Source: Candidatus Binatia bacterium (lineage in GTDB: Bacteria; Desulfobacterota; Binatia; UBA9968; JAJDTQ01). From it: a stretch of DNA of 64,000 nucleotides. The notes beneath the pieces are model-generated. The model did no database searches. It worked only from the letters and a program-made list of their open reading frames with translations, and was not told the DNA's origin. The position numbers were made by a program, and so were the translations under genes. Positions within the stretch are counted from its first letter, which is position 1; the number at the start of each line of letters is the position of its first letter. Below are positions 17,699 through 37,231 of the stretch, piece by piece. The DNA lies in assembly GCA_963666515.2 (NCBI GenBank), contig OY762897.2, positions 3,360,001 to 3,424,000 on the forward strand, in the 5' to 3' direction.

Positions 17699-20600
17699 AT
17701 GACCTTCTACGCCGACCTGCACGTCCACTCCCGGTTCTCCCGCGCCACCAGCCGGAACCTGGACCTGGAGCACTTGGCCGTCTGGGCTCGCAAGAAGGGC
17801 ATCGGCGTGGTGGGCACCGGCGACTTCACCCATCCGGCGTGGCGGGCCGAGTTGAAGGAGCAGCTCGTGCCGGCGGAGCCCGGGCTGTTCCGGTTGCGCG
17901 CCGACCTGGAGCGGGCGGTCGAGCGGCAGCTTCCGCCGGCCTGCGCCGGCGGCCTCGCCGCGGTGCGGTTCATGCTGTCGGTGGAGATCTCCACCATCTA
18001 CAAGAAGGGCGACAAGACCCGGAAGATACACCACCTGGTCTACTGTCCGGACTTCGACTCGGCCGACCGGCTGGTGGCCGCCCTCTCCCGCATCGGCAAC
18101 CTGCACTCGGACGGGCGGCCGATCCTGGGGCTGGACTCCCGGCACCTGCTGGAGATGACGCTGGAGTCGGGTCCGGGCTCGTACCTGGTGCCGGCGCACG
18201 TGTGGACCCCGTGGTTCGCCGCGCTGGGCTCCAAGTCCGGCTTCGACGCCGTGGACGACTGCTACGGGGACTTGGCGCCGCACATCTTCGCGGTGGAGAC
18301 GGGGCTCTCGTCCGACCCGCCCATGAACTGGCGGGTGTCGTCCCTGGACCGCTTCCGGCTCATGTCCAACTCCGACGCCCACTCGCCCGAGAAGCTGGGG
18401 CGGGAGGTGTGCGTCTTCCACACCGAGATGGACTACTTTGCGTTGCGCCGGGCGCTGGAGACGGGCGAGGGCTATGGCGGCACCCTGGAGTTCTTTCCGG
18501 AAGAGGGCAAGTACCATCTCGACGGCCACCGCAACTGCAACGTCCGCCTGGAGCCGGACGAGACCCGCGGGCTCGACGGCCGCTGCCCGGCCTGCGGCAA
18601 GCCGCTGACCGTGGGGGTGATGCACCGGGTGGAGGACCTGGCCGACCGGGCTCACGACGAGGCGCCGCCGGACACCGCGGGGGACACCCGCGGGCTGATC
18701 CCGCTGCCGGAAATCCTGGGTGAGATCCACCGCGTGGGCCCCAAGAGCAAGCGGGTCGCGCAGGACTACGAAGGGCTGCTGGCGCGGCTCGGACCGGAGC
18801 TGCAACTCCTGAACAGCGTGCCGCTGGAAGACATCGGTCCGGTCGCGCCGTCGCTGGTGGCCGAGGCGGTGGCGCGTCTGCGGCGGCGGGAAGTGATCCG
18901 GGAGGCCGGCTACGACGGCGTGTACGGCACCATCCGCCTGTTCCGGGACGCCGAGCTGGAGCGGCGGAGCCGGGGGGCGTCGCTGTTCGGGGAGGAGACC
19001 GCGGGATCGGCGACGGCTCAGGCCGCTCCGAGTGGGATGGATTCCGGCCAGGAGATCCCCCGTCCCGGAGTCGAAGCGCCGGAACGGGCCGCTCGGGCGC
19101 ATGAACCGGCGGCGGACGATCCCGCGATTGCGCGCCGGGAGCCGCTCGATCCCGGTTCCGCACCCGCACCCCACCCGGCTGATGAGCGCCGGGACGGCGG
19201 CTCACCGGGACAACTGTCGCTCCCCGCCGACCTGTCCCCCGGCGGCCGCGATCTCCTGGCCGGCCTGGACGCGGATCAGCGACGCGCGGCGGAGATCGTC
19301 GACGGACCCTTGCTGATCGTAGCCGGTCCCGGATCGGGGAAGACCCGGACCCTGACCCGCCGCATCGCCCACCTCGTCACGAACCACGGCGCGTCCCCGT
19401 CCGGCTGTCTTGCCGTCACCTTCACCCGCCGGGCCGCGGACGAGATGCGGAGCCGTCTGCGTGAGCTCCTGCCGGACGCATGGGCCGACATCCCGCTGCA
19501 CACCTTCCATTCCCTAGGCTTGGACATCCTCCGGGAGCACTGGAACGCCGCGGGGTTGCAACGGGGTTTCCGGGTTGCCTCGGAGGCCGAGCGGCTTCGG
19601 CTGCTGCGGGACGCGCTGGGGATCTCCGAGCGGCAGGCCCGCGCGCGCCAGTCGGCCATCTCCCAGGGCAAGCGGACCGGCGCGCCGTCCGCGGACGAGA
19701 AGCTCGCGCAGGCGTGGGAGGCCTACCGGCACGAGATGGAAACACGCAACTGGTGCGACTTCGACGACCTGGTCATCCGGGCTGCGGATGCCCTGGAACG
19801 CGACCCCGGAGTCCGCGAACAGGTGCGGCAACGGTATCCGTGGGTCTGCATCGACGAGTACCAGGACGTGGACGAGCAGCAGGTCCGGTTGATCAGGCAG
19901 ATCGTCCCTCCCGACGGGAACATCTGCGCCATCGGCGACCCCGACCAAGCCATCTACGGCTTCCGGGGCGCAGACCGCCGGTTCTTCTCCGAGTTTACCG
20001 AACACTTTCCGGGCGCCCATGTGGTGCGGCTCAGCCGCAACTATCGCTCCAACTCCAACATCGTCACCCTCTCCTCGCAGGTCATGGCCGTAGCGGCCTC
20101 GGCCGGACCTTCCATCCCGGTGCTCGACGACGACCCCGACCGCGTCACCCTGCACGAAGCCCCGAGCGAGAAGGCCGAGGCCGAGTTCATCGTGCAGTCC
20201 CTGGAGCAGGCGCTGGGCGGCCACAGCTTCTTCTCCATCGACAGCGGCCGATCGACCGAGGCCCTGGGCCACGATCTCTCGTTCTCCGATTTTGCAGTAC
20301 TCTACCGCACCGAGGCCCAGGCCGCGGCACTGGTGGAGGCGCTCCAGCGCTCCGGCATGCCCTGCCAGCAGCGCTCCCACAACCCGCTGCTGGATCATCC
20401 CGGCGTCGCCGCACTGGTGGAGGCATTGGGCCGCGCCCCGGACACCGGCTCGGTGCGCAGGCGCCTCGAAGCCGCCGGCATGGACGGCGAACCGCCGGAA
20501 GCCTGCGAGCTGCTGAAACCGCTGGCCGACGCCTGCGGCGACGACCTGGAGCGCTTCCTTTCCGAACTGGCCCTGGGCAGCCAGGTGGACACCTGGGACC

Positions 20601-20950
20601 CGCGCGCCGACCGGATCTCGTTGCTGACCCTCCACGCCGCCAAGGGGCTCGAATTCCCCGTCGTCTTCATCGTGGGATGCGAGGACGGCGTGCTCCCCCT
20701 GACGTGGGGCAAGGCGGATCCGGACGACCTCGCCGAAGAGCGGCGCCTGTTCTACGTCGGCGTCACCCGCGCCATGAGCAAGCTCTACCTGTGCCGCGCC
20801 CGCAAGCGGCTCTGGCGCGGAAAGGTCCGCGAGCTGCCTGCTTCTCCTTTCCTCGCCGACATCGAGCAGCGGCTCCTGGAACGAAGCCGTGCGCGCCCCG
20901 CCGGACCGAGGACACGGGAGCAGAACAGCCAGTTGGACCTGTTCAAGTAG
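17699..20950 (+). CDS. Endonuclease Q (PHP)-UvrD/Rep-like helicase fusion
   Basis: N-term ADLHVHSRFSRATS, GTGDFTHP, PAHVWTPW, ETGLSSDP, SNSDAHS, GKYHLDGHRNC...CPACG; C-term AGPGSGKT, IDEYQD, IGDPDQAIYGFRG, NYRS, TLHAAKGLEF, EERRLFYVGVTRA. Confidence 0.92.
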   Translation: MTFYADLHVHSRFSRATSRNLDLEHLAVWARKKGIGVVGTGDFTHPAWRAELKEQLVPAEPGLFRLRADLERAVERQLPPACAGGLAAVRFMLSVEISTIYKKGDKTRKIHHLVYCPDFDSADRLVAALSRIGNLHSDGRPILGLDSRHLLEMTLESGPGSYLVPAHVWTPWFAALGSKSGFDAVDDCYGDLAPHIFAVETGLSSDPPMNWRVSSLDRFRLMSNSDAHSPEKLGREVCVFHTEMDYFALRRALETGEGYGGTLEFFPEEGKYHLDGHRNCNVRLEPDETRGLDGRCPACGKPLTVGVMHRVEDLADRAHDEAPPDTAGDTRGLIPLPEILGEIHRVGPKSKRVAQDYEGLLARLGPELQLLNSVPLEDIGPVAPSLVAEAVARLRRREVIREAGYDGVYGTIRLFRDAELERRSRGASLFGEETAGSATAQAAPSGMDSGQEIPRPGVEAPERAARAHEPAADDPAIARREPLDPGSAPAPHPADERRDGGSPGQLSLPADLSPGGRDLLAGLDADQRRAAEIVDGPLLIVAGPGSGKTRTLTRRIAHLVTNHGASPSGCLAVTFTRRAADEMRSRLRELLPDAWADIPLHTFHSLGLDILREHWNAAGLQRGFRVASEAERLRLLRDALGISERQARARQSAISQGKRTGAPSADEKLAQAWEAYRHEMETRNWCDFDDLVIRAADALERDPGVREQVRQRYPWVCIDEYQDVDEQQVRLIRQIVPPDGNICAIGDPDQAIYGFRGADRRFFSEFTEHFPGAHVVRLSRNYRSNSNIVTLSSQVMAVAASAGPSIPVLDDDPDRVTLHEAPSEKAEAEFIVQSLEQALGGHSFFSIDSGRSTEALGHDLSFSDFAVLYRTEAQAAALVEALQRSGMPCQQRSHNPLLDHPGVAALVEALGRAPDTGSVRRRLEAAGMDGEPPEACELLKPLADACGDDLERFLSELALGSQVDTWDPRADRISLLTLHAAKGLEFPVVFIVGCEDGVLPLTWGKADPDDLAEERRLFYVGVTRAMSKLYLCRARKRLWRGKVRELPASPFLADIEQRLLERSRARPAGPRTREQNSQLDLFK

Positions 20951-21079: not shown

Positions 21080-21562
21080 ATGCACGCACTCAGAATGGCC
21101 CTTGTGGGCCTCGTTGCCTTGACGCTGGCCCTTGCCGGCTGCTCTGCCAACCCCGGGAAGAAGGAAGCCGTTGGAACGTTGCTGGGCGCCATCGGCGGCG
21201 GGGTCGCCGGTGCGCAAGTAGGCAAGGGGCGCGGAAAACTCGTCGCCACGGGCATCGGCACGCTCCTCGGCGCGGCCATCGGCAACGAGATCGGCAAGTC
21301 CCTGGATCGCGCCGACCGTCTGGCCATGCAGCGCACCAACCAGCAATCGCTGGAAACGGCAAAAACCGGCACCACCAGCACCTGGAAAAACCCCGATTCC
21401 GGCAACCAGGGCACGATCACGCCGAAGAAAACTTACAAGAAGCCGGACGGAACCTACTGCCGTGAGTTCCAGCAGACCGTTACGATCGGCGGCCGTACCG
21501 AGGAAGCCTACGGCACCGCCTGCCGCCAGCCCGACGGGAGCTGGAAGCTCGTCTCGACGTAG
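21080..21562 (+). CDS. Glycine-zipper outer-membrane lipoprotein (17-kDa surface antigen, RT0821/Lpp0805-like)
   Basis: Lipobox LAGC, glycine zipper, WKNPDSG, CREFQQT, GTACRQPDGSW. Confidence 0.9.
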   Translation: MHALRMALVGLVALTLALAGCSANPGKKEAVGTLLGAIGGGVAGAQVGKGRGKLVATGIGTLLGAAIGNEIGKSLDRADRLAMQRTNQQSLETAKTGTTSTWKNPDSGNQGTITPKKTYKKPDGTYCREFQQTVTIGGRTEEAYGTACRQPDGSWKLVST

Positions 21563-21565
21563 GCC

Positions 21566-22219
21566 GTGCCGCCCCCCGTTTCGCCCAATATCTACCACAT
21601 CGCGCATGTCGATCGGCTGCCGTCGATAATCACAGACGGCTACCTCTGGTGCGATGAAGAGATGACGCGACGAACCGAGGCCCAAGCCGACGTAGGCACG
21701 GCGATCGGAATGAGCAGCATCAAGCAGAGGCGGTTGACTGAACTCTCGCTCGACAGCCATCCGGGCCTCTACGTGGGGCAGTGTGTGCCCTTCTACTTCT
21801 GCCCGCGTTCGGTCATGCTCTACGTGATCCACCGTGCAAGCCGTGACGAGCTTTCCTATCGTGGTGGGCAAGGTCCCATATTACATCTCGAAGCCGACTT
21901 GCAGGACGCTGTTCACTGGGCTGACTCCAACAAGCGTCGCTGGGCGTTCACGCTGTCGAACGCAGGAGCGTATTACTTCGAGGACCGTGCGGACTTGGCG
22001 CAACTGGTGTTTTCCAGCCGCCAACGCCGCCCGGACTTCTGTATAGAAGCGTTGCGAGCTGACGCCGACGCGCCTGACCAACTCCCAAGGAAACGAGCGC
22101 TCCAATAGGAATTCCGCCTGTTTCGGTTCCTTGCAGTTTTGCCAATATTGAGCGTTGATGGCCGCCCAATCGAGTTCGTCCAGCCGCATCTTGCGATAAT
22201 GCCGGGATGGTACTACTGA
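21566..22219 (+). pseudogene. darT: DarT DNA ADP-ribosyltransferase toxin (DUF4433) disrupted by an internal 172-bp inversion
   Basis: IYHIAHVDRLPSI, IKQRR, VPFYFCPRSVML, FTLSNAG on +; DWAAI...KQAEFL...FPWELV on - (22008-22179); PGWYY* tail back on + at 22217-22219. Confidence 0.9.
22004..22183. other. Inverted segment within darT bounded by a 4-bp inverted repeat CTGG/CCAG
   Basis: CTGG at 22004-22007 and CCAG at 22180-22183; reverse-complementing 22008-22179 gives a stop-free frame 21566-22219. Confidence 0.9.
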
Positions 22220-22235
22220 CGGGCGGAAGGTAAAG

Positions 22236-23303
22236 ATGCTCGAATTCAAGACGGGCGACATTCTCGCTGAAGACGCGGACGCCTTGGTGAACACGGTGAA
22301 CTGCGTGGGGGTGATGGGGCGTGGGATCGCGCTCCAGTTCAAGAATGCCTTCCCTGAGAATTTCAAGGCCTACGCCGATGCCTGTAAGCGTCACGAGGTA
22401 GAACCGGGCCGTATGTTCGTGTTCCAGACCGGCCAACTGACCAACCCGCGCTACATCATCAATTTCCCGACCAAGCGCCACTGGCGCGGAAAGAGCCGGA
22501 TGGAAGACATCGACGCAGGGCTGAAGGCGCTACGGGAGGTGATCCGTGAGAATGGCATCCACTCCATTGCCATTCCTCCACTTGGCAGCGGCCTGGGTGG
22601 ACTGAACTGGGGCAATGTGCGCTCCAGGATCGAAGAAGCGTTAAGAGATTTCGAAGACTTGCGCATCGTGGTATTCGAACCCGGCGAGGCGCCGAAGACT
22701 CAACAGATGCCCAAGCACCGGTCGGCGCCTGAGATGACGCCCGGTCGCGCGGCGCTTGTGGGGCTGATGGACCGCTATCTTGGGGGTCTTCTCGACCCGT
22801 CCGTGACCCTGCTCGAAGTCCATAAGTTGATGTATTTCATGAAGATCAGTGGAGAACCCGCTATGGACAAGCTCCGGGTGGTAAAGGGTCTCTACGGTCC
22901 TTACGCGGAGAATCTGACCCATGTGCTTCGTGAGGTTGAGGGATATTTCATCTCGGGTTATCGGGACGGGGGCGACCAGCCTGAAAAGCAGATTGAACTG
23001 GTGCCGGGCGCAGTCGCCGACGCCGACGCATTCCTGGAGAAACATCCCGACACGCGCACCCGATTCGACCGCGTAGCCGATCTGGTCGCAGGCTTCGAGT
23101 CATCTTTTGGCCTCGAGCTTCTGTCGACTGTGCATTGGGTCATCACACAGGAATCTGCCAGCAATCTGGACGACCTGATCTCGCGCGTCTATGGCTGGAA
23201 TGATCGCAAAAAGCAATTCTCGGCTCGCCAGATCGGCTTGGCTGCCGATGTCCTGGCGAAAAAGGGCTGGGTCGAACCTCTCCTCTCCGCTTCTGACTCA
23301 TGA
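22236..23303 (+). CDS. darG: DarG antitoxin (macrodomain ADP-ribosylglycohydrolase)
   Basis: GDIL...ALVNTVNCVGVMGRGIA, INFPTKRHW, IPPLGSGLGGL, C-terminal KLMYF...YGPYA...GFES..GLELLSTVHW. Confidence 0.95.
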   Translation: MLEFKTGDILAEDADALVNTVNCVGVMGRGIALQFKNAFPENFKAYADACKRHEVEPGRMFVFQTGQLTNPRYIINFPTKRHWRGKSRMEDIDAGLKALREVIRENGIHSIAIPPLGSGLGGLNWGNVRSRIEEALRDFEDLRIVVFEPGEAPKTQQMPKHRSAPEMTPGRAALVGLMDRYLGGLLDPSVTLLEVHKLMYFMKISGEPAMDKLRVVKGLYGPYAENLTHVLREVEGYFISGYRDGGDQPEKQIELVPGAVADADAFLEKHPDTRTRFDRVADLVAGFESSFGLELLSTVHWVITQESASNLDDLISRVYGWNDRKKQFSARQIGLAADVLAKKGWVEPLLSASDS

Positions 23304-25385: not shown

Positions 25386-25649
25386 GCCAGTCCGTTCATG
25401 GGTCCTGTCCCGCAGCCGGTCCGTGGGACCGGGCGCCCTGGGGAATCCCGCGACGCTGCTTCATAGTACCGAAGGCCGCCCGTTAAAACCAGTTTCAAAG
25501 GAGGAGGCTTGCAATTTACCGTTGGGTTGCCCAAGCTCAAGGGTGCAGCTTGCATGGCTCTCTTCTCGCACGGCACCGCCCGATCTGCTAGCATGGCGCG
25601 TCACATTAACTCGCAACCAACCCGGCGACCCGTGGAAAAGGAGCTGCCG

Positions 25650-26255
25650 ATGACCGATCAAGTGACCCTGGAGGTCTTCTCGGATTTCGTCTGACCGTGG
25701 TGCTATCTCAGTACCGGGCGTATTGAGAAACTGCGGCAGAATTATGATCTGAACGTTGTCTACACCCAGTTCCCGTTGCATCCCGATACGCCGCCCGAGG
25801 GCAAGGCGCGCAACATGAGCGGCCCGAGCCGGGTGGACGCCATGCTGGAACGCGAGGGCCTGCCTTTTACCGAGCGCAAGTTCAGCTACAACAGCCGCTC
25901 GGCCCAGGAGCTGGCAAAATGGGCGAAACGCGAGGGGCGGGAAGACGCCTTCAACGACGCGGTGTACCGCGCCTATTTCGTGGAGGCGGCGAACATCGCC
26001 GAGCCTGAAGTCCTGCTCCGGCTGGTGGAAGAGGCGGGGCTGCCGGTGGAGGAGGCGCGCGGGGTGTTGTCGGACCGGACCTTCCAGCAGTCCGTCAATG
26101 ACGACTGGCAGCGCTGCTACTCCCTGGGTGTGACGGCCGTTCCCACCTACCTGTCGGAAGGCTTGGCCATCGTCGGCGCCGAGCCCTACGAGCAATTGGA
26201 ACGGCTTGTCACCGAGGCGAGCGCCAAGCGGTCGGCGGAGGCGGCGGACGCCTGA
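25650..26255 (+). CDS. DsbA/FrnE-like thiol-disulfide oxidoreductase selenoprotein (U15-P-W-C)
   Basis: AAGGAG RBS, ATG 25650, FSDFV-TGA(25692)-PWCY in frame with ORF 25776..26255; FPLHP and GVTAVPT motifs; downstream hairpin. Confidence 0.88.
25695..25736 (+). promoter_or_regulatory. Bacterial SECIS-like stem-loop
   Basis: Directly 3' of the UGA: lower stem CCGTGG/CTGCGG, upper stem TCTCAGTAC/GTATTGAGA, apical loop CGGGC. Confidence 0.72.
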
Positions 26256-26404
26256 CCGCAATCCACGAGCCGCGATCCCACGCACATCGGGATCGGACCT
26301 TGGATTTGCCTTTACGGTCCTTAACTAACTGGATTGACAGGGAAGTCGTTTGTTCGGATATCGGCGAGTCGGCCGACAACCACGGCCGGTATCGGAGAGT
26401 GATC

Positions 26405-30571: not shown

Positions 30572-31579
30572 ATGGCACGGCCGCTACGGATCGAATTCCC
30601 GCACGCGCACTACCACGTCACCTGCCGCGGCAATGACCGGCGGCGGATCTTCGGGGATGACGACGACCGGCATGCCTTCCTGGAAAGGCTGCGCAGGTCG
30701 CTGGATATCTACGAGGTTAAGCTGCACTGCTACGTGCTGATGAACAACCACTTCCACCTCGTGGCGGATACTCCCAGGGGCAATCTCTCCGAGTTCATGC
30801 GGCACTTCAACGTAGCCTACACGTCGTATTTCAACCGGCGCCACCGCCGCACGGGCCATCTCTACCAAGGGCGCTTCAAGGCGATCCTGATCCAGCCCGA
30901 TGCCTGGCTGCTGGAGTTGAGCCGGTACGTTCACATGAATCCGGTGCGGACGCCCCGGCTCAGGCGGGGCATGGCCCCGGACCAGGTGCGGCAACTGTGG
31001 CAGTACCCCTGGAGCAGCCTGGGCGGATACGTTTCCGTGCGGCGCCGAAAGCCGTGGGTCCACTATGACGAGGTGTTGTCGCGGACAGGTGATTCCCGGC
31101 AGCAGTACGGCCGGTTCGTCCAGGACGGGTTGGAGCAGGGCGTGACGAGTCCGTGGAAGCAAGTGCGCGGGCAGGTGGTCCTGGGCGATGACCGCTTCTG
31201 GACCGGCGTCAGGGAGCAGTGGGCCGGCGCTGCCGGCAGCGCCGCGGTGCGGGAACTCCCGCTGCCCGCGGCAAGGATGGACCCCGCCCGAATCACCGCG
31301 GAGGCAGCGAGGTACTTCAACCTGGCGCCCGAACGGCTTCGGCGCAAGCGGGGCCGCTGCCGGGACCAGCGGGGTGTATTGATGGAGCTGCTGTACCGCC
31401 ACGGCGGCATGACCCAGCAGGCCATCGGCGCCCACCTCGGCGGCCTGGACTACACCGCGGTGAGTCACGAGCGGCGCCGGGCGCGGGAGCGCATGGCGCA
31501 GAACGAGGTGATGGCAGGGTGGTGGCTCGATCTGGATTCCGCGCTCGGATCCGCTGACCGGCAAAGCGTCAACCGTTAA
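30572..31579 (+). CDS. REP-associated tyrosine transposase (RAYT/Y1_Tnp) with C-terminal HTH
   Basis: MARPLRI, YHVTCRGN, LMNNHFHL (HUH), HLYQGRFKA, YVHMNPV; C-terminal IGAHLGGLDYTAVSH. Confidence 0.88.
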   Translation: MARPLRIEFPHAHYHVTCRGNDRRRIFGDDDDRHAFLERLRRSLDIYEVKLHCYVLMNNHFHLVADTPRGNLSEFMRHFNVAYTSYFNRRHRRTGHLYQGRFKAILIQPDAWLLELSRYVHMNPVRTPRLRRGMAPDQVRQLWQYPWSSLGGYVSVRRRKPWVHYDEVLSRTGDSRQQYGRFVQDGLEQGVTSPWKQVRGQVVLGDDRFWTGVREQWAGAAGSAAVRELPLPAARMDPARITAEAARYFNLAPERLRRKRGRCRDQRGVLMELLYRHGGMTQQAIGAHLGGLDYTAVSHERRRARERMAQNEVMAGWWLDLDSALGSADRQSVNR

Positions 31580-33994: not shown

Positions 33995-34033
33995 CCGTTC
34001 GTCCTGAGCGTAGCGTAGCGAAGTCGAAGGACG
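33995..34033. repeat. Dispersed palindromic repeat (CGTCCTGAGCGTAGCG...AGTCGAAGGACG type)
   Basis: CGTCCT...AGGACG ends; resembles the widespread GTCCTGAGC..GTCGAAGGA intergenic repeats; single copy here. Confidence 0.5.
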
Positions 34034-34091
34034 CCTTGCCGACAACAAGAAATCCTGCGCAGCTTGGTAAAGAACTACGTCGGACAGGACA

Positions 34092-34963: not shown

Positions 34964-36136
34964 CTAGTTCGCGGTGAAAAGGGTTGCCTGGCCGGCCGGG
35001 ACCTGAAGCGGCCCGTCCGAAGCAAACGGATCGGCAGCCTGTTTGGGGAGGCGCAGCTTCCGGCGAATTTCCGCCACGGTTGGAGACGCCTCGTAGTGGC
35101 GGCCCCGTCTTTCGCCTTTTGCCACGATAAGGTCCGTGTCCACCAGGACCTTCAGGTCACGGCTGGCGAGGTTGTTCGACACGTCTGCGCTCACTCGATA
35201 TGACGAGTTCCTCACCTTGCTGCCGAATGCAGCCTGGAGCAGCGCCATGGCCGTGCGCTCGGGAAGGCCCCTGGACTCCACCAGGTTGAGAAGCTCTGCA
35301 TAGACTCTCTCCAGCTCCCGCGTCCGGCGAAGAAGTGTCTGTGCCTGCAGGTAGTGGCCGCTCAGGCAGAAGCGCACCCATGGTTTGGCATCGCGCCGCG
35401 GGTTCCATCCGCCGCCGCCCACCGCCGCCAGCACATGGTAGTACTCCTGTTGATTGTGACCGATATACTCCTCGATTGAGGAAAACGCTGGCGCGACAAT
35501 CCCGTCGCCCGCCAGCACCGCGGTCTGGATGCACCTGGCCGTGCGGCCATTGCCATCCGTAAACGGATGCAGCAGCGCCAGGTTCAGATGCGCCATCGCC
35601 GCGCGGAGGAATACGGAATCGACGTCCTCATCGTTTACATAGTCCAGAAGCTCGCGGATCAGCGGCTCCAGTTGGTCACGGTCCACCCCCTCGTGCACGA
35701 CGTCACCGGTCTTGGTGTTTCTGACACCAACCCACCCGGGACGGTACTGACCCGGATGTGCCTGCAGATCCGACTGGCAGATCATGAAGTGGACCGCCAG
35801 GAGCACGTCTTCCGTGATCCTGAAGGACGCGCTCTTCCGGCGCTGGAGGGTGTAGTCCATGGCTTCACGGTAACCGACAACGGCCCGCCACGTCTCGCGG
35901 TCGGTGCTCGCGGGGTCTTCGCCGTCAATCGCGGCGATGGCATCCTCATCAGACACATGGATGCCCTCCACACTGTTGGAGGCCATGAGCGCCCGGGCCC
36001 GGGTCATGCGGGCCAACAGGCCGGTCCAACGACGCGGTTCGGTGACGACGTAGTTGCGTAGATCAGCCCGTATGCGGGCCGTGGCAGCCTCTACTCGCTT
36101 CTCGTCGTCATCCAGTGCAGAATACGTGTACAGCAT
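34964..36136 (-). CDS. Fic family protein with C-terminal winged-HTH
   Basis: SNSVEG, PGQYR, canonical HPFTDGNGRTAR; C-terminal ASRDLKVLVD...GERRGRHY. Confidence 0.9.
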   Translation of the reverse strand: MLYTYSALDDDEKRVEAATARIRADLRNYVVTEPRRWTGLLARMTRARALMASNSVEGIHVSDEDAIAAIDGEDPASTDRETWRAVVGYREAMDYTLQRRKSASFRITEDVLLAVHFMICQSDLQAHPGQYRPGWVGVRNTKTGDVVHEGVDRDQLEPLIRELLDYVNDEDVDSVFLRAAMAHLNLALLHPFTDGNGRTARCIQTAVLAGDGIVAPAFSSIEEYIGHNQQEYYHVLAAVGGGGWNPRRDAKPWVRFCLSGHYLQAQTLLRRTRELERVYAELLNLVESRGLPERTAMALLQAAFGSKVRNSSYRVSADVSNNLASRDLKVLVDTDLIVAKGERRGRHYEASPTVAEIRRKLRLPKQAADPFASDGPLQVPAGQATLFTAN

Positions 36137-36139
36137 GAT

Positions 36140-36208
36140 CATATGTAATTGACAACTGATTTCAAGACAGTTAATAACCGTCGTAAGGTCAGTTGTCAAT
36201 TGTATATG
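36140..36208. promoter_or_regulatory. Long inverted repeat in the fic / TAXI-like divergent region
   Basis: AATTGACAACTGA (36147-36159) and TCAGTTGTCAATT (36189-36201) form a perfect 13-bp IR; each arm contains TTGACA. Confidence 0.6.
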
Positions 36209-36238
36209 GGGCCGTCCACCCGCAAGGAGAACCATCAC

Positions 36239-37231
36239 ATGGCCTACGACGACCGCAGCGTGAAACCCATGAGCTCGAGCCTGTTGCGGGCGCAGATCGG
36301 CACCAAGCTCCTGGCCGGCCTGTACGACTCGGTGCCCACCATGATGACCAGCGCCATCCGGCTTTACGTGGACCTGCCCGGCGCCGGCGGCTCCGCCGGC
36401 CCTCCCTTCGCCTTCAACATCGCCATCAGCCCGGCCTGGTGCAGCGGCATCCAGGGCGCCCGCCTGGTGGGACGGCGCAAGATCGACATCGCCTGGCTCA
36501 ACCCCTCGTGCATCCCGGCCATGGCCTATCACGGACGCGGCCCCTTCCGGAAAGCGCTGCCGTTGCGAGCGCTGGCGGTGTTTCCCTCCAATGACCGGAT
36601 GGTGGTGGCGCTGGGGCGCAGGCACGGCATCCGCTCCATGGACGAGCTCAAGCGCCGGAAGCCCGCCCTCACGGTCTCGGTGGCCACCAACGACTGCGTC
36701 AACTTCGCCATCAACGCGGCCCTGCGCGCCCACGGCATGAGCCTCAAGACCTTCGAGGAGTGGGGCGGGGTGGTGGAGCCGGTAGTGCGGCCCAGCAACC
36801 CGCGGCGCCTGGAAGGCATCCGCACCGGCGACGTCGACGCGGTCATCGACGAGGGCCTGCCCTCCTGGGCCGGCGCCGCGGTGGAGGAGGAGATGGCCTT
36901 CCTGCACTTCTCGCCCAAGGCCATGGCGTCGCTCGACCGCTACGGCTTCAGCCGCGCGCCGCTGGACGGCCCGCTGTTCGACGGAAAGCTTCCCGAGCCG
37001 GTCACCGCCGTGGACTTCAGCGGCTGGCCCATCGTCACCCACGCGGACCTGCCGGACGAGCTTGCCTACCAGGTGGTCGGCGTCATCGAGCAGATGCGGG
37101 AGAACATCGAATACGACACTCCGGGAATCCCGCCCATGACCCAGTTCTGCACGGACACCCCGGACGGCCCGCTGGACCTGCCGCTGCACCCCGGGGCCGA
37201 GCGGTATTACCGGGAGAAGGGGTATCTCTGA
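36239..37231 (+). CDS. TAXI-like solute-binding-fold protein lacking an obvious signal peptide
   Basis: LRALAVFP, GIRSMDEL, AVDFSGW...LPDELAY, C-terminal PLHPGAERYYREKGYL; AAGGAG RBS. Confidence 0.78.
   Translation: MAYDDRSVKPMSSSLLRAQIGTKLLAGLYDSVPTMMTSAIRLYVDLPGAGGSAGPPFAFNIAISPAWCSGIQGARLVGRRKIDIAWLNPSCIPAMAYHGRGPFRKALPLRALAVFPSNDRMVVALGRRHGIRSMDELKRRKPALTVSVATNDCVNFAINAALRAHGMSLKTFEEWGGVVEPVVRPSNPRRLEGIRTGDVDAVIDEGLPSWAGAAVEEEMAFLHFSPKAMASLDRYGFSRAPLDGPLFDGKLPEPVTAVDFSGWPIVTHADLPDELAYQVVGVIEQMRENIEYDTPGIPPMTQFCTDTPDGPLDLPLHPGAERYYREKGYL

Follow-up and report, generated by a model that had tools for sequence, protein, structure and literature searches.

The DarTG2 class of toxin-antitoxin systems is defined, according to the accessible text of PMC11543638, by its macrodomain antitoxin, and the substitution E160A in the DarT toxin of Thermus aquaticus is given as catalytic-null in the available parts of PMC5179494 and PMC11543638. 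Genes that are interrupted by the flipping of an internal DNA segment were described by Chanin et al. (bioRxiv 10.1101/2023.03.11.532203), whose invertons, as far as the accessible text goes, are invertase-mediated, have detectable inverted repeats, and usually occur as mixtures in clonal samples; enzyme-independent 7-bp flips in mitochondria are mentioned in the same source. Among the papers listed by a literature search on inversions or pseudogenes in darT or DarTG, none dealt with a DNA inversion in darT.

The darTG locus discussed here, from a Candidatus Binatia bacterium associated with a sponge, lies in the window, i.e., the whole stretch of 64,000 nucleotides that was analyzed. Compared with DarTG2, the DarT domain is present but split across the two strands, the adjacent DarG is present, and the catalytic Glu is missing from the toxin frame. 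In all likelihood, a recent, lineage-specific, one-off inversion mediated by microhomology made darT a pseudogene and left darG intact. The coordinates of the relevant features are collected in Table 1.

Table 1. Position and strand of the features of the darTG locus and of the mobile-element genes in the window, with the basis of each assignment
Feature	Position	Strand	Basis or remark
darT 5' part, residues 1-147, GTG start	21566..22007	+	NAD-binding N-terminal portion of the DarT domain
CTGG, left arm of the 4-bp inverted repeat, left breakpoint	22004..22007		Sequence; contig joint at 22007/22008
Inverted segment, 172 nt	22008..22179	-	Pfam DarT profile on the minus strand; 7omv match; opposite-strand matches in relatives
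CCAGCCGC, 8 nt	22014..22021		Now a direct repeat of 22180-22187, 166 nt apart
Premature TAG closing the 180-aa plus-strand ORF	22106..22108	+	ORF list
CCAG, right arm of the 4-bp inverted repeat, right breakpoint	22180..22183		Sequence; contig joint
darT 3' tail, TGA and the 12 codons before it	22181..22219	+	Original frame and strand kept
darG, 355 aa, N-terminal macrodomain, intact	22236..23303	+	Pfam Macro PF01661, E 1.3e-26
IS200-like Y1 transposase homologue, 335 aa, long for the family	30572-31579		8-17 kb downstream of darTG
rve-type IS integrase	39028-39933		8-17 kb downstream of darTG

The plus-strand ORF at 21566..22108 encodes 180 residues, and residues 10-147 match positions 1-124 of the Pfam DarT profile PF14487 (E 1.2e-33), while the last 33 residues are unrelated and have no Pfam match; the initial annotation had read the frame in the same way, as DarT up to L147 followed by 33 foreign residues. 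The rest of the domain is found on the opposite strand, where residues 60-126 of a minus-strand ORF (21881..22366) match profile positions 122-194 (E 6e-14). The DarT residues encoded there are 148-205, and they occupy 22007-22180, i.e., the inverted segment plus one base from each repeat arm. When the segment 22008-22179 was reverse-complemented with a script, a stop-free darT frame of 217 codons was obtained, closed by the TGA at 22217-19, so that the earlier claim of a 217-aa ORF restored with no base lost or gained is reproduced. The positions proposed for the missing minus-strand part, the return of the tail to the plus strand, and the bounding motifs CTGG (22004-07) and CCAG (22180-83) also hold in the sequence. 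A DarT search of the whole genome gave matches at the darT locus only, in the same two opposite-strand pieces, both of which pass the cut-off.

The inverted repeat at the breakpoints is perfect over 4 bp, and only 6 of 8 bases match when it is extended; taken alone, the 4-bp repeat is no more than would be expected by chance. The weight of the inversion call lies in the continuity of the profile, which passes from position 124 in the first piece to 122 in the second, and in the colinear alignment of the flipped form, over residues 1-217, with six relatives.

The 2 contigs of this genome were assembled from a metagenome, and chimeric reads can yield small inversions, which leads to the question of whether the true darT is intact and the inversion was made by misassembly or by chimeric reads. 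The stretch was found in seven public runs, four of which (X1, X4, X5, and X7) were compared as Logan contigs. Contigs from X4 (covering 21800-22900), X5, and X7 (both covering 21803-22263) cross both inverted junctions colinearly and with 0 differences, and neither opposite-strand joints nor intact junctions were found in the contigs of these three runs. The runs represent three samples of one study, from which the assembly probably came, and cannot be counted as independent. An artifact would require two precise junctions in every library, and this explanation, which is considered highly improbable, was rejected because the separately built contigs of three runs carry both junctions.

The intact orientation was found in X1, a sponge metagenome from another study, on a contig of 3379 nt with a depth of 325. 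This contig corresponds to 21508-22007 on the minus strand, 22008-22179 on the plus strand, and 22180-22900 again on the minus strand, with joints exactly at 22007/22008 and 22179/22180 and 4 ambiguous letters. The three portions differ from the window at 3, 1, and 18 positions, respectively, which amounts to 22 differences over 1393 nt (~98.4% identity). The inversion is real, and both alleles exist in nature, in strains that are ~98.4% identical. It is also judged to be recent, because the frame has suffered no further damage and the intact allele is found in a strain of ~98.4% identity; the earlier proposal of a very recent event agrees with this estimate.

As for the state of the toxin, the N-terminal DarT piece matches the structure of Thermus DarT 7omv (E 4e-14), as well as 7yk3, and the minus-strand piece matches positions 137-189 of the 7omv chain (E 3.6e-9). 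The Glu of the motif KQAEF is encoded by the minus-strand codon at 22112-14 and becomes residue 170 in the restored frame, as had been proposed for the Glu of the QAE motif (E170 of the reconstruction). It aligns with an Ala of the crystallized Thermus DarT 7omv, at the mutated catalytic position, and this alignment suggests that the deposited chain carries E160A. The plus-strand ORF ends at 22108 and the Glu codon is on the minus strand, which places the catalytic residue outside the plus-strand toxin frame. The present orientation parts this Glu from the NAD-binding N-terminal portion, and the reading of the locus as toxin-OFF is accepted on the ground that the two lie on opposite strands. 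The 180-aa plus-strand product, devoid of the active-site Glu, should be inactive.

Among 41 related genomes searched, G020, G013, G003, and G021 match the middle segment on one strand and its flanks on the other, which corresponds to the uninverted arrangement. In the comparison of darT across related genomes, suggested earlier as a check, the flipped DarT is 63-79% identical to six of the seven congener loci and colinear with them over residues 1-217. Among these six, the darT of G013 has an in-frame stop, seen after residue 157 in the translation. The seventh locus belongs to the closest relative, G021 (darG 89% identical in nucleotides), where residues ~40-157 are absent from both copies of darT. 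The order UvrD/PHP helicase, 17-kDa lipoprotein, darT, darG, TctB is common, wholly or in part, to G021, G002, G016, G020, and G003, and the DarTG locus looks like an old chromosomal locus, as judged from this gene order, not like a recent mobile insertion.

The repeat arms are less constant than the gene order. The right arm differs in 6/6 congeners, being CCAA in 4/6, TCAA in 1/6, and CAAA in 1/6, and the left arm differs in 4/6, CTGG being kept in the other 2/6. This variation argues against a reading akin to the ON/OFF switch raised in the initial annotation, namely, that the segment is a programmed, reversible intragenic inverton of the premature-stop class, with a recombinase that flips the DarT toxin between ON and OFF within the population. 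Such a switch would agree with a flip that is exact, in frame, and free of other damage, and with the occurrence of the two orientations in strains ~98.4% identical, and design could be read into the fact that the sole in-place inversion in 64 kb strikes, exactly in frame, the catalytic part of a toxin. Furthermore, the accessible text of bioRxiv 10.1101/2023.03.11.532203 reports invertase-mediated premature-stop invertons in Bacteroides and many isolates, and allows that the invertase may have been lost where a locus is fixed at 100%. Yet the perfect repeat is 4 bp long, with 6/8 bases in the extended form, and the genome lacks a serine recombinase: a search with PF00239 gave 0 matches in this 98.35%-complete genome, the same search being positive in 12/14 reference genomes used as a control. 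Tyrosine recombinases (PF00589) number three in the genome, none near the locus, the nearest being 66 kb upstream; the other two (E 6e-50 and 1e-45) are taken to be Xer-like from their strong scores.

Beside darTG itself, no recombinase of a recognized family was found in the Pfam annotation of 42 window ORFs. A nearby invertase was also rejected as a candidate; the sole mobile-element genes in the window are the two IS genes listed in Table 1.

The runs and the relatives also speak against the programmed switch. Each run shows one orientation, the contigs are unbroken across both junctions, and the coexistence of both orientations was not seen in any of X1, X4, X5, and X7 at the level of contigs, which drop rare variants. 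No further cross-strand split of darT was met in the genomes and loci searched, and unrelated lesions break the same gene in relatives. A programmed switch is, on this evidence, unlikely. Both arguments that the initial annotation had itself raised against it, the inverted repeat of only 4 bp and the absence of an invertase from the window, are upheld, and its proposal of a reversible ON/OFF switch is unsupported: the repeat is unconserved, no plausible invertase was found, and each sample has a single orientation at contig level, the three samples of one study being inverted only and the relatives intact. A working ON/OFF flip of this DNA-ADP-ribosylating defense toxin could also be imagined, both states being present in the species, through an unrecognized recombinase, or through the hairpin and microhomology themselves, with flips frequent enough for revertants to be selected by phage; it is regarded as quite improbable. 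If true, an uncultured sponge symbiont would control an abortive-infection toxin by a phase switch that is intragenic and enzyme-light. Likewise, the finding of both orientations in one sample would make this locus an uncommon example of toxin control by phase variation, which the current evidence makes unlikely.

The preferred explanation is a spontaneous, single 172-bp inversion, which would have occurred between the 4-bp inverted microhomologies CTGG and CCAG in a chromosomal locus of the DarTG2 type. Inversions between short inverted repeats are known in E. coli, and a homology of 4 bp stands at the short end of the range reported for bacterial inversions. The DNA around the right breakpoint may have contributed: before the inversion, the complement of 22014-21 faced 22180-87 over a 6-nt loop, forming an 8-bp hairpin, and the junction DNA of the intact form folds with -10.7 kcal/mol vs a mean of -4.6 (sd 1.9) for shuffled sequences. 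The left breakpoint has 6/8 bases in common with the 5' arm of this hairpin. As far as the congener sequences indicate, the breakpoint hairpin is specific to this lineage.

The ancestral 8-bp stem may have aided the inversion, with a stalled or broken fork at the hairpin being followed by two template switches, or by a repair event that used the 4-nt microhomology, with no base gained or lost. The process would likely be enzyme-independent, consisting of either replication template switching or microhomology-mediated repair, and the flip would have carried residues 148-205, together with the catalytic Glu, to the other strand, leaving a pseudogene. The inverted allele would then have been fixed in the population, probably because the loss of a self-toxic enzyme is neutral or favored.

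A side effect of the event is the direct repeat CCAGCCGC, which was made by the inversion and through which the inverted segment could now be deleted by slippage.

The inverted allele might also have acquired a function, if the 180-aa fragment with its new tail, or the minus-strand ORF at 21881..22366, were selected, e.g., as a decoy or a regulator. Both ORFs are open, and intragenic inversions can recode proteins, as stated in the accessible text of bioRxiv 10.1101/2023.03.11.532203. This idea is very hard to credit, as neither the 33 new residues nor the flanks of the minus-strand ORF have a Pfam match beyond the DarT pieces, and the allele occurs in a single lineage, with no such form in any relative searched.

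The one-off inversion that is favored here can be set against the fate of darT in the rest of the genus. A DarT profile search of 28 genus genomes found 18 loci in 14 genomes, 11 of them unbroken and 7 broken, the latter comprising two loci with in-frame stops in G013, same-strand splits in G011 and G042, a deletion in both copies of G021, and the inversion in the present genome (G000), which is the only opposite-strand split among the 18 loci. darT thus decays repeatedly in the genus, by differing lesions (7/18 loci). In both copies of G021 (C1, loci L004/L029, and C3, loci L028/L030), profile positions 1-27 and 145-201 are kept and 28-144 are missing, with the edges of the deletion taken from the identical HMM boundaries, as the DNA alignment of the two remnants is poor at the 5' end.

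In the HMM rows of the other broken loci, single in-frame stops are seen at the two G013 loci L015 and L024 (TGA and TAG), and darT appears as two same-strand matches in G011 (L021/L027) and G042 (L022/L026).

The picture is the same outside the genus. A phylum sample of 401 genomes contained 34 that were DarT-positive, and its other split loci, in G354, G107, and G225, are all same-strand. The 80 darG-anchored loci examined, which come from many phyla, comprise 65 with one colinear and stop-free DarT match, 1 with none, and 14 in which it is truncated, stopped, or split. No other opposite-strand darT split was found among the 18 genus loci, the 33 other DarT-positive phylum genomes, and the 80 darG-anchored loci.

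As a synteny control, the window was compared by blastn with syntenic DNA (65 kb) of four congeners, and 19-48 kb aligned in each case; the darT segment is the sole in-place match on the opposite strand. A lineage-wide tendency to small inversions was rejected because the 19-48 kb aligned per congener contain no other in-place one.

One further opposite-strand match, out of place, concerns 40 nt at 33995-34034, which are 97.5% identical to a sequence in the G013 region and may be a short dispersed repeat.

In contrast to its toxin, the antitoxin gene is in good order. The claim that darG is intact was borne out by its 355-aa product, with the Macro domain of PF01661 (E 1.3e-26) and a full-length alignment to relatives, over residues 1-355 or 1-348/349. 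The gene has its own Shine-Dalgarno-like sequence GGAAGG upstream and, in the restored frame, is separated from darT by 16 nt. Compared with 80 loci, DarG shows 63-90% identity over its full length, and 65/80 of these loci have an unbroken darT directly upstream. DarG is full length next to a broken darT at each such locus compared, i.e., in G013, in both copies of G021, and in G000.

The rates of substitution complement these observations. By the Nei-Gojobori method, the dN/dS of darG is 0.125 between the window and G021 C1, 0.177 between the window and G021 C3, and 0.156 between the two G021 copies. The genes of C1 and C3 are 89% and 85% identical to that of the window in nucleotides, and 90% and 84% in protein, respectively, both DarG proteins being 355 aa long. 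When the window is set against X1, 17 differences (10 synonymous, 7 not) fall in the first 665 nt of darG, and 4 (2 synonymous, 2 not) in darT. From these values, darG seems to have been kept under purifying selection after the loss of darT. The pair C1/C3 has a pS of 0.24 and identical boundaries of the darT deletion, and a dN/dS of 0.156 at this pS suggests that darG of G021 was long retained after its darT was lost. In the present genome, the whole-genome profile search found no DarT elsewhere that the DarG of the window could neutralize, and the persistence of a constrained darG in a genome without any DarT suggests a separate role for DarG, e.g., against a foreign DarT or against other DNA ADP-ribosylation.

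MAGs titled Vicinamibacterales, Paracoccaceae, Gemmatimonadetes, and Candidatus Entotheonella encode DarG proteins with 75-79% identity to the present one (e.g., L036, L037, L041, L044, L047, and L052). This cross-phylum identity is nearly as close as that of some congeners (80-84%), and points either to this DarTG lineage having spread horizontally between phyla or to binning errors.

The surroundings of the locus include several other genes of note. A 1083-aa UvrD-type helicase (17699-20950) lies directly upstream of the lipoprotein-darT-darG group, in an order that is kept in several congeners, and its N-terminus is what we take to be a PHP-like region (HVHSxxS); that a DNA-repair helicase stands beside a system for DNA ADP-ribosylation may be coincidental. 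A 741-aa Fic-domain protein is encoded at 34964-37189, in the same range of 8-17 kb downstream of darTG as the two IS genes of Table 1. Further on, an ORF of 1906 aa at 48144-53864, about twice the normal length of UvrA, contains UvrA_DNA-bind, UvrA_inter twice, and ABC_tran. The ORF at 25461-26285, a crude call, has no Pfam match at E 1e-5.

The inversion of darT illustrates an ordinary process neatly. It offers a clean natural example of the loss of a self-toxic defense gene, in which one exact inversion takes the catalytic residue out of frame. It also has a practical side, as gene callers will label the 180-aa product "DarT" and score as present a defense system that has probably lost its function.

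When set beside the known systems, the locus resembles DarTG2 of Thermus aquaticus, M. tuberculosis, and E. coli in having, in one operon, a PF14487 DarT and then a macrodomain DarG, a Glu that aligns with E160 of the Thermus toxin, and two darT pieces that both match 7omv. It departs from them in that the toxin gene is inverted within and the catalytic Glu is off the plus-strand product. The likeness to the premature-stop invertons of Chanin et al., as presented in the accessible text of bioRxiv 10.1101/2023.03.11.532203, consists of an intragenic inversion that adds a premature stop and of a protein that is restored by flipping back; unlike those invertons, darT has a repeat of 4 bp that is not conserved, no invertase was found for it, one orientation is present per sample at contig level, and the flip was not met again in the related loci searched. 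With degenerate toxin-antitoxin loci that have an "orphan" antitoxin, the locus shares an inactivated toxin and an intact, constrained antitoxin, and it differs from the usual ones in that the genome has no other DarT and in the unusual nature of the lesion, an exact inversion. Finally, as in spontaneous microhomology inversions, the inverted homology is very short, no recombinase is evident, and a hairpin-forming sequence lies at one breakpoint, features of the sequence that point to a mechanism of the same kind.
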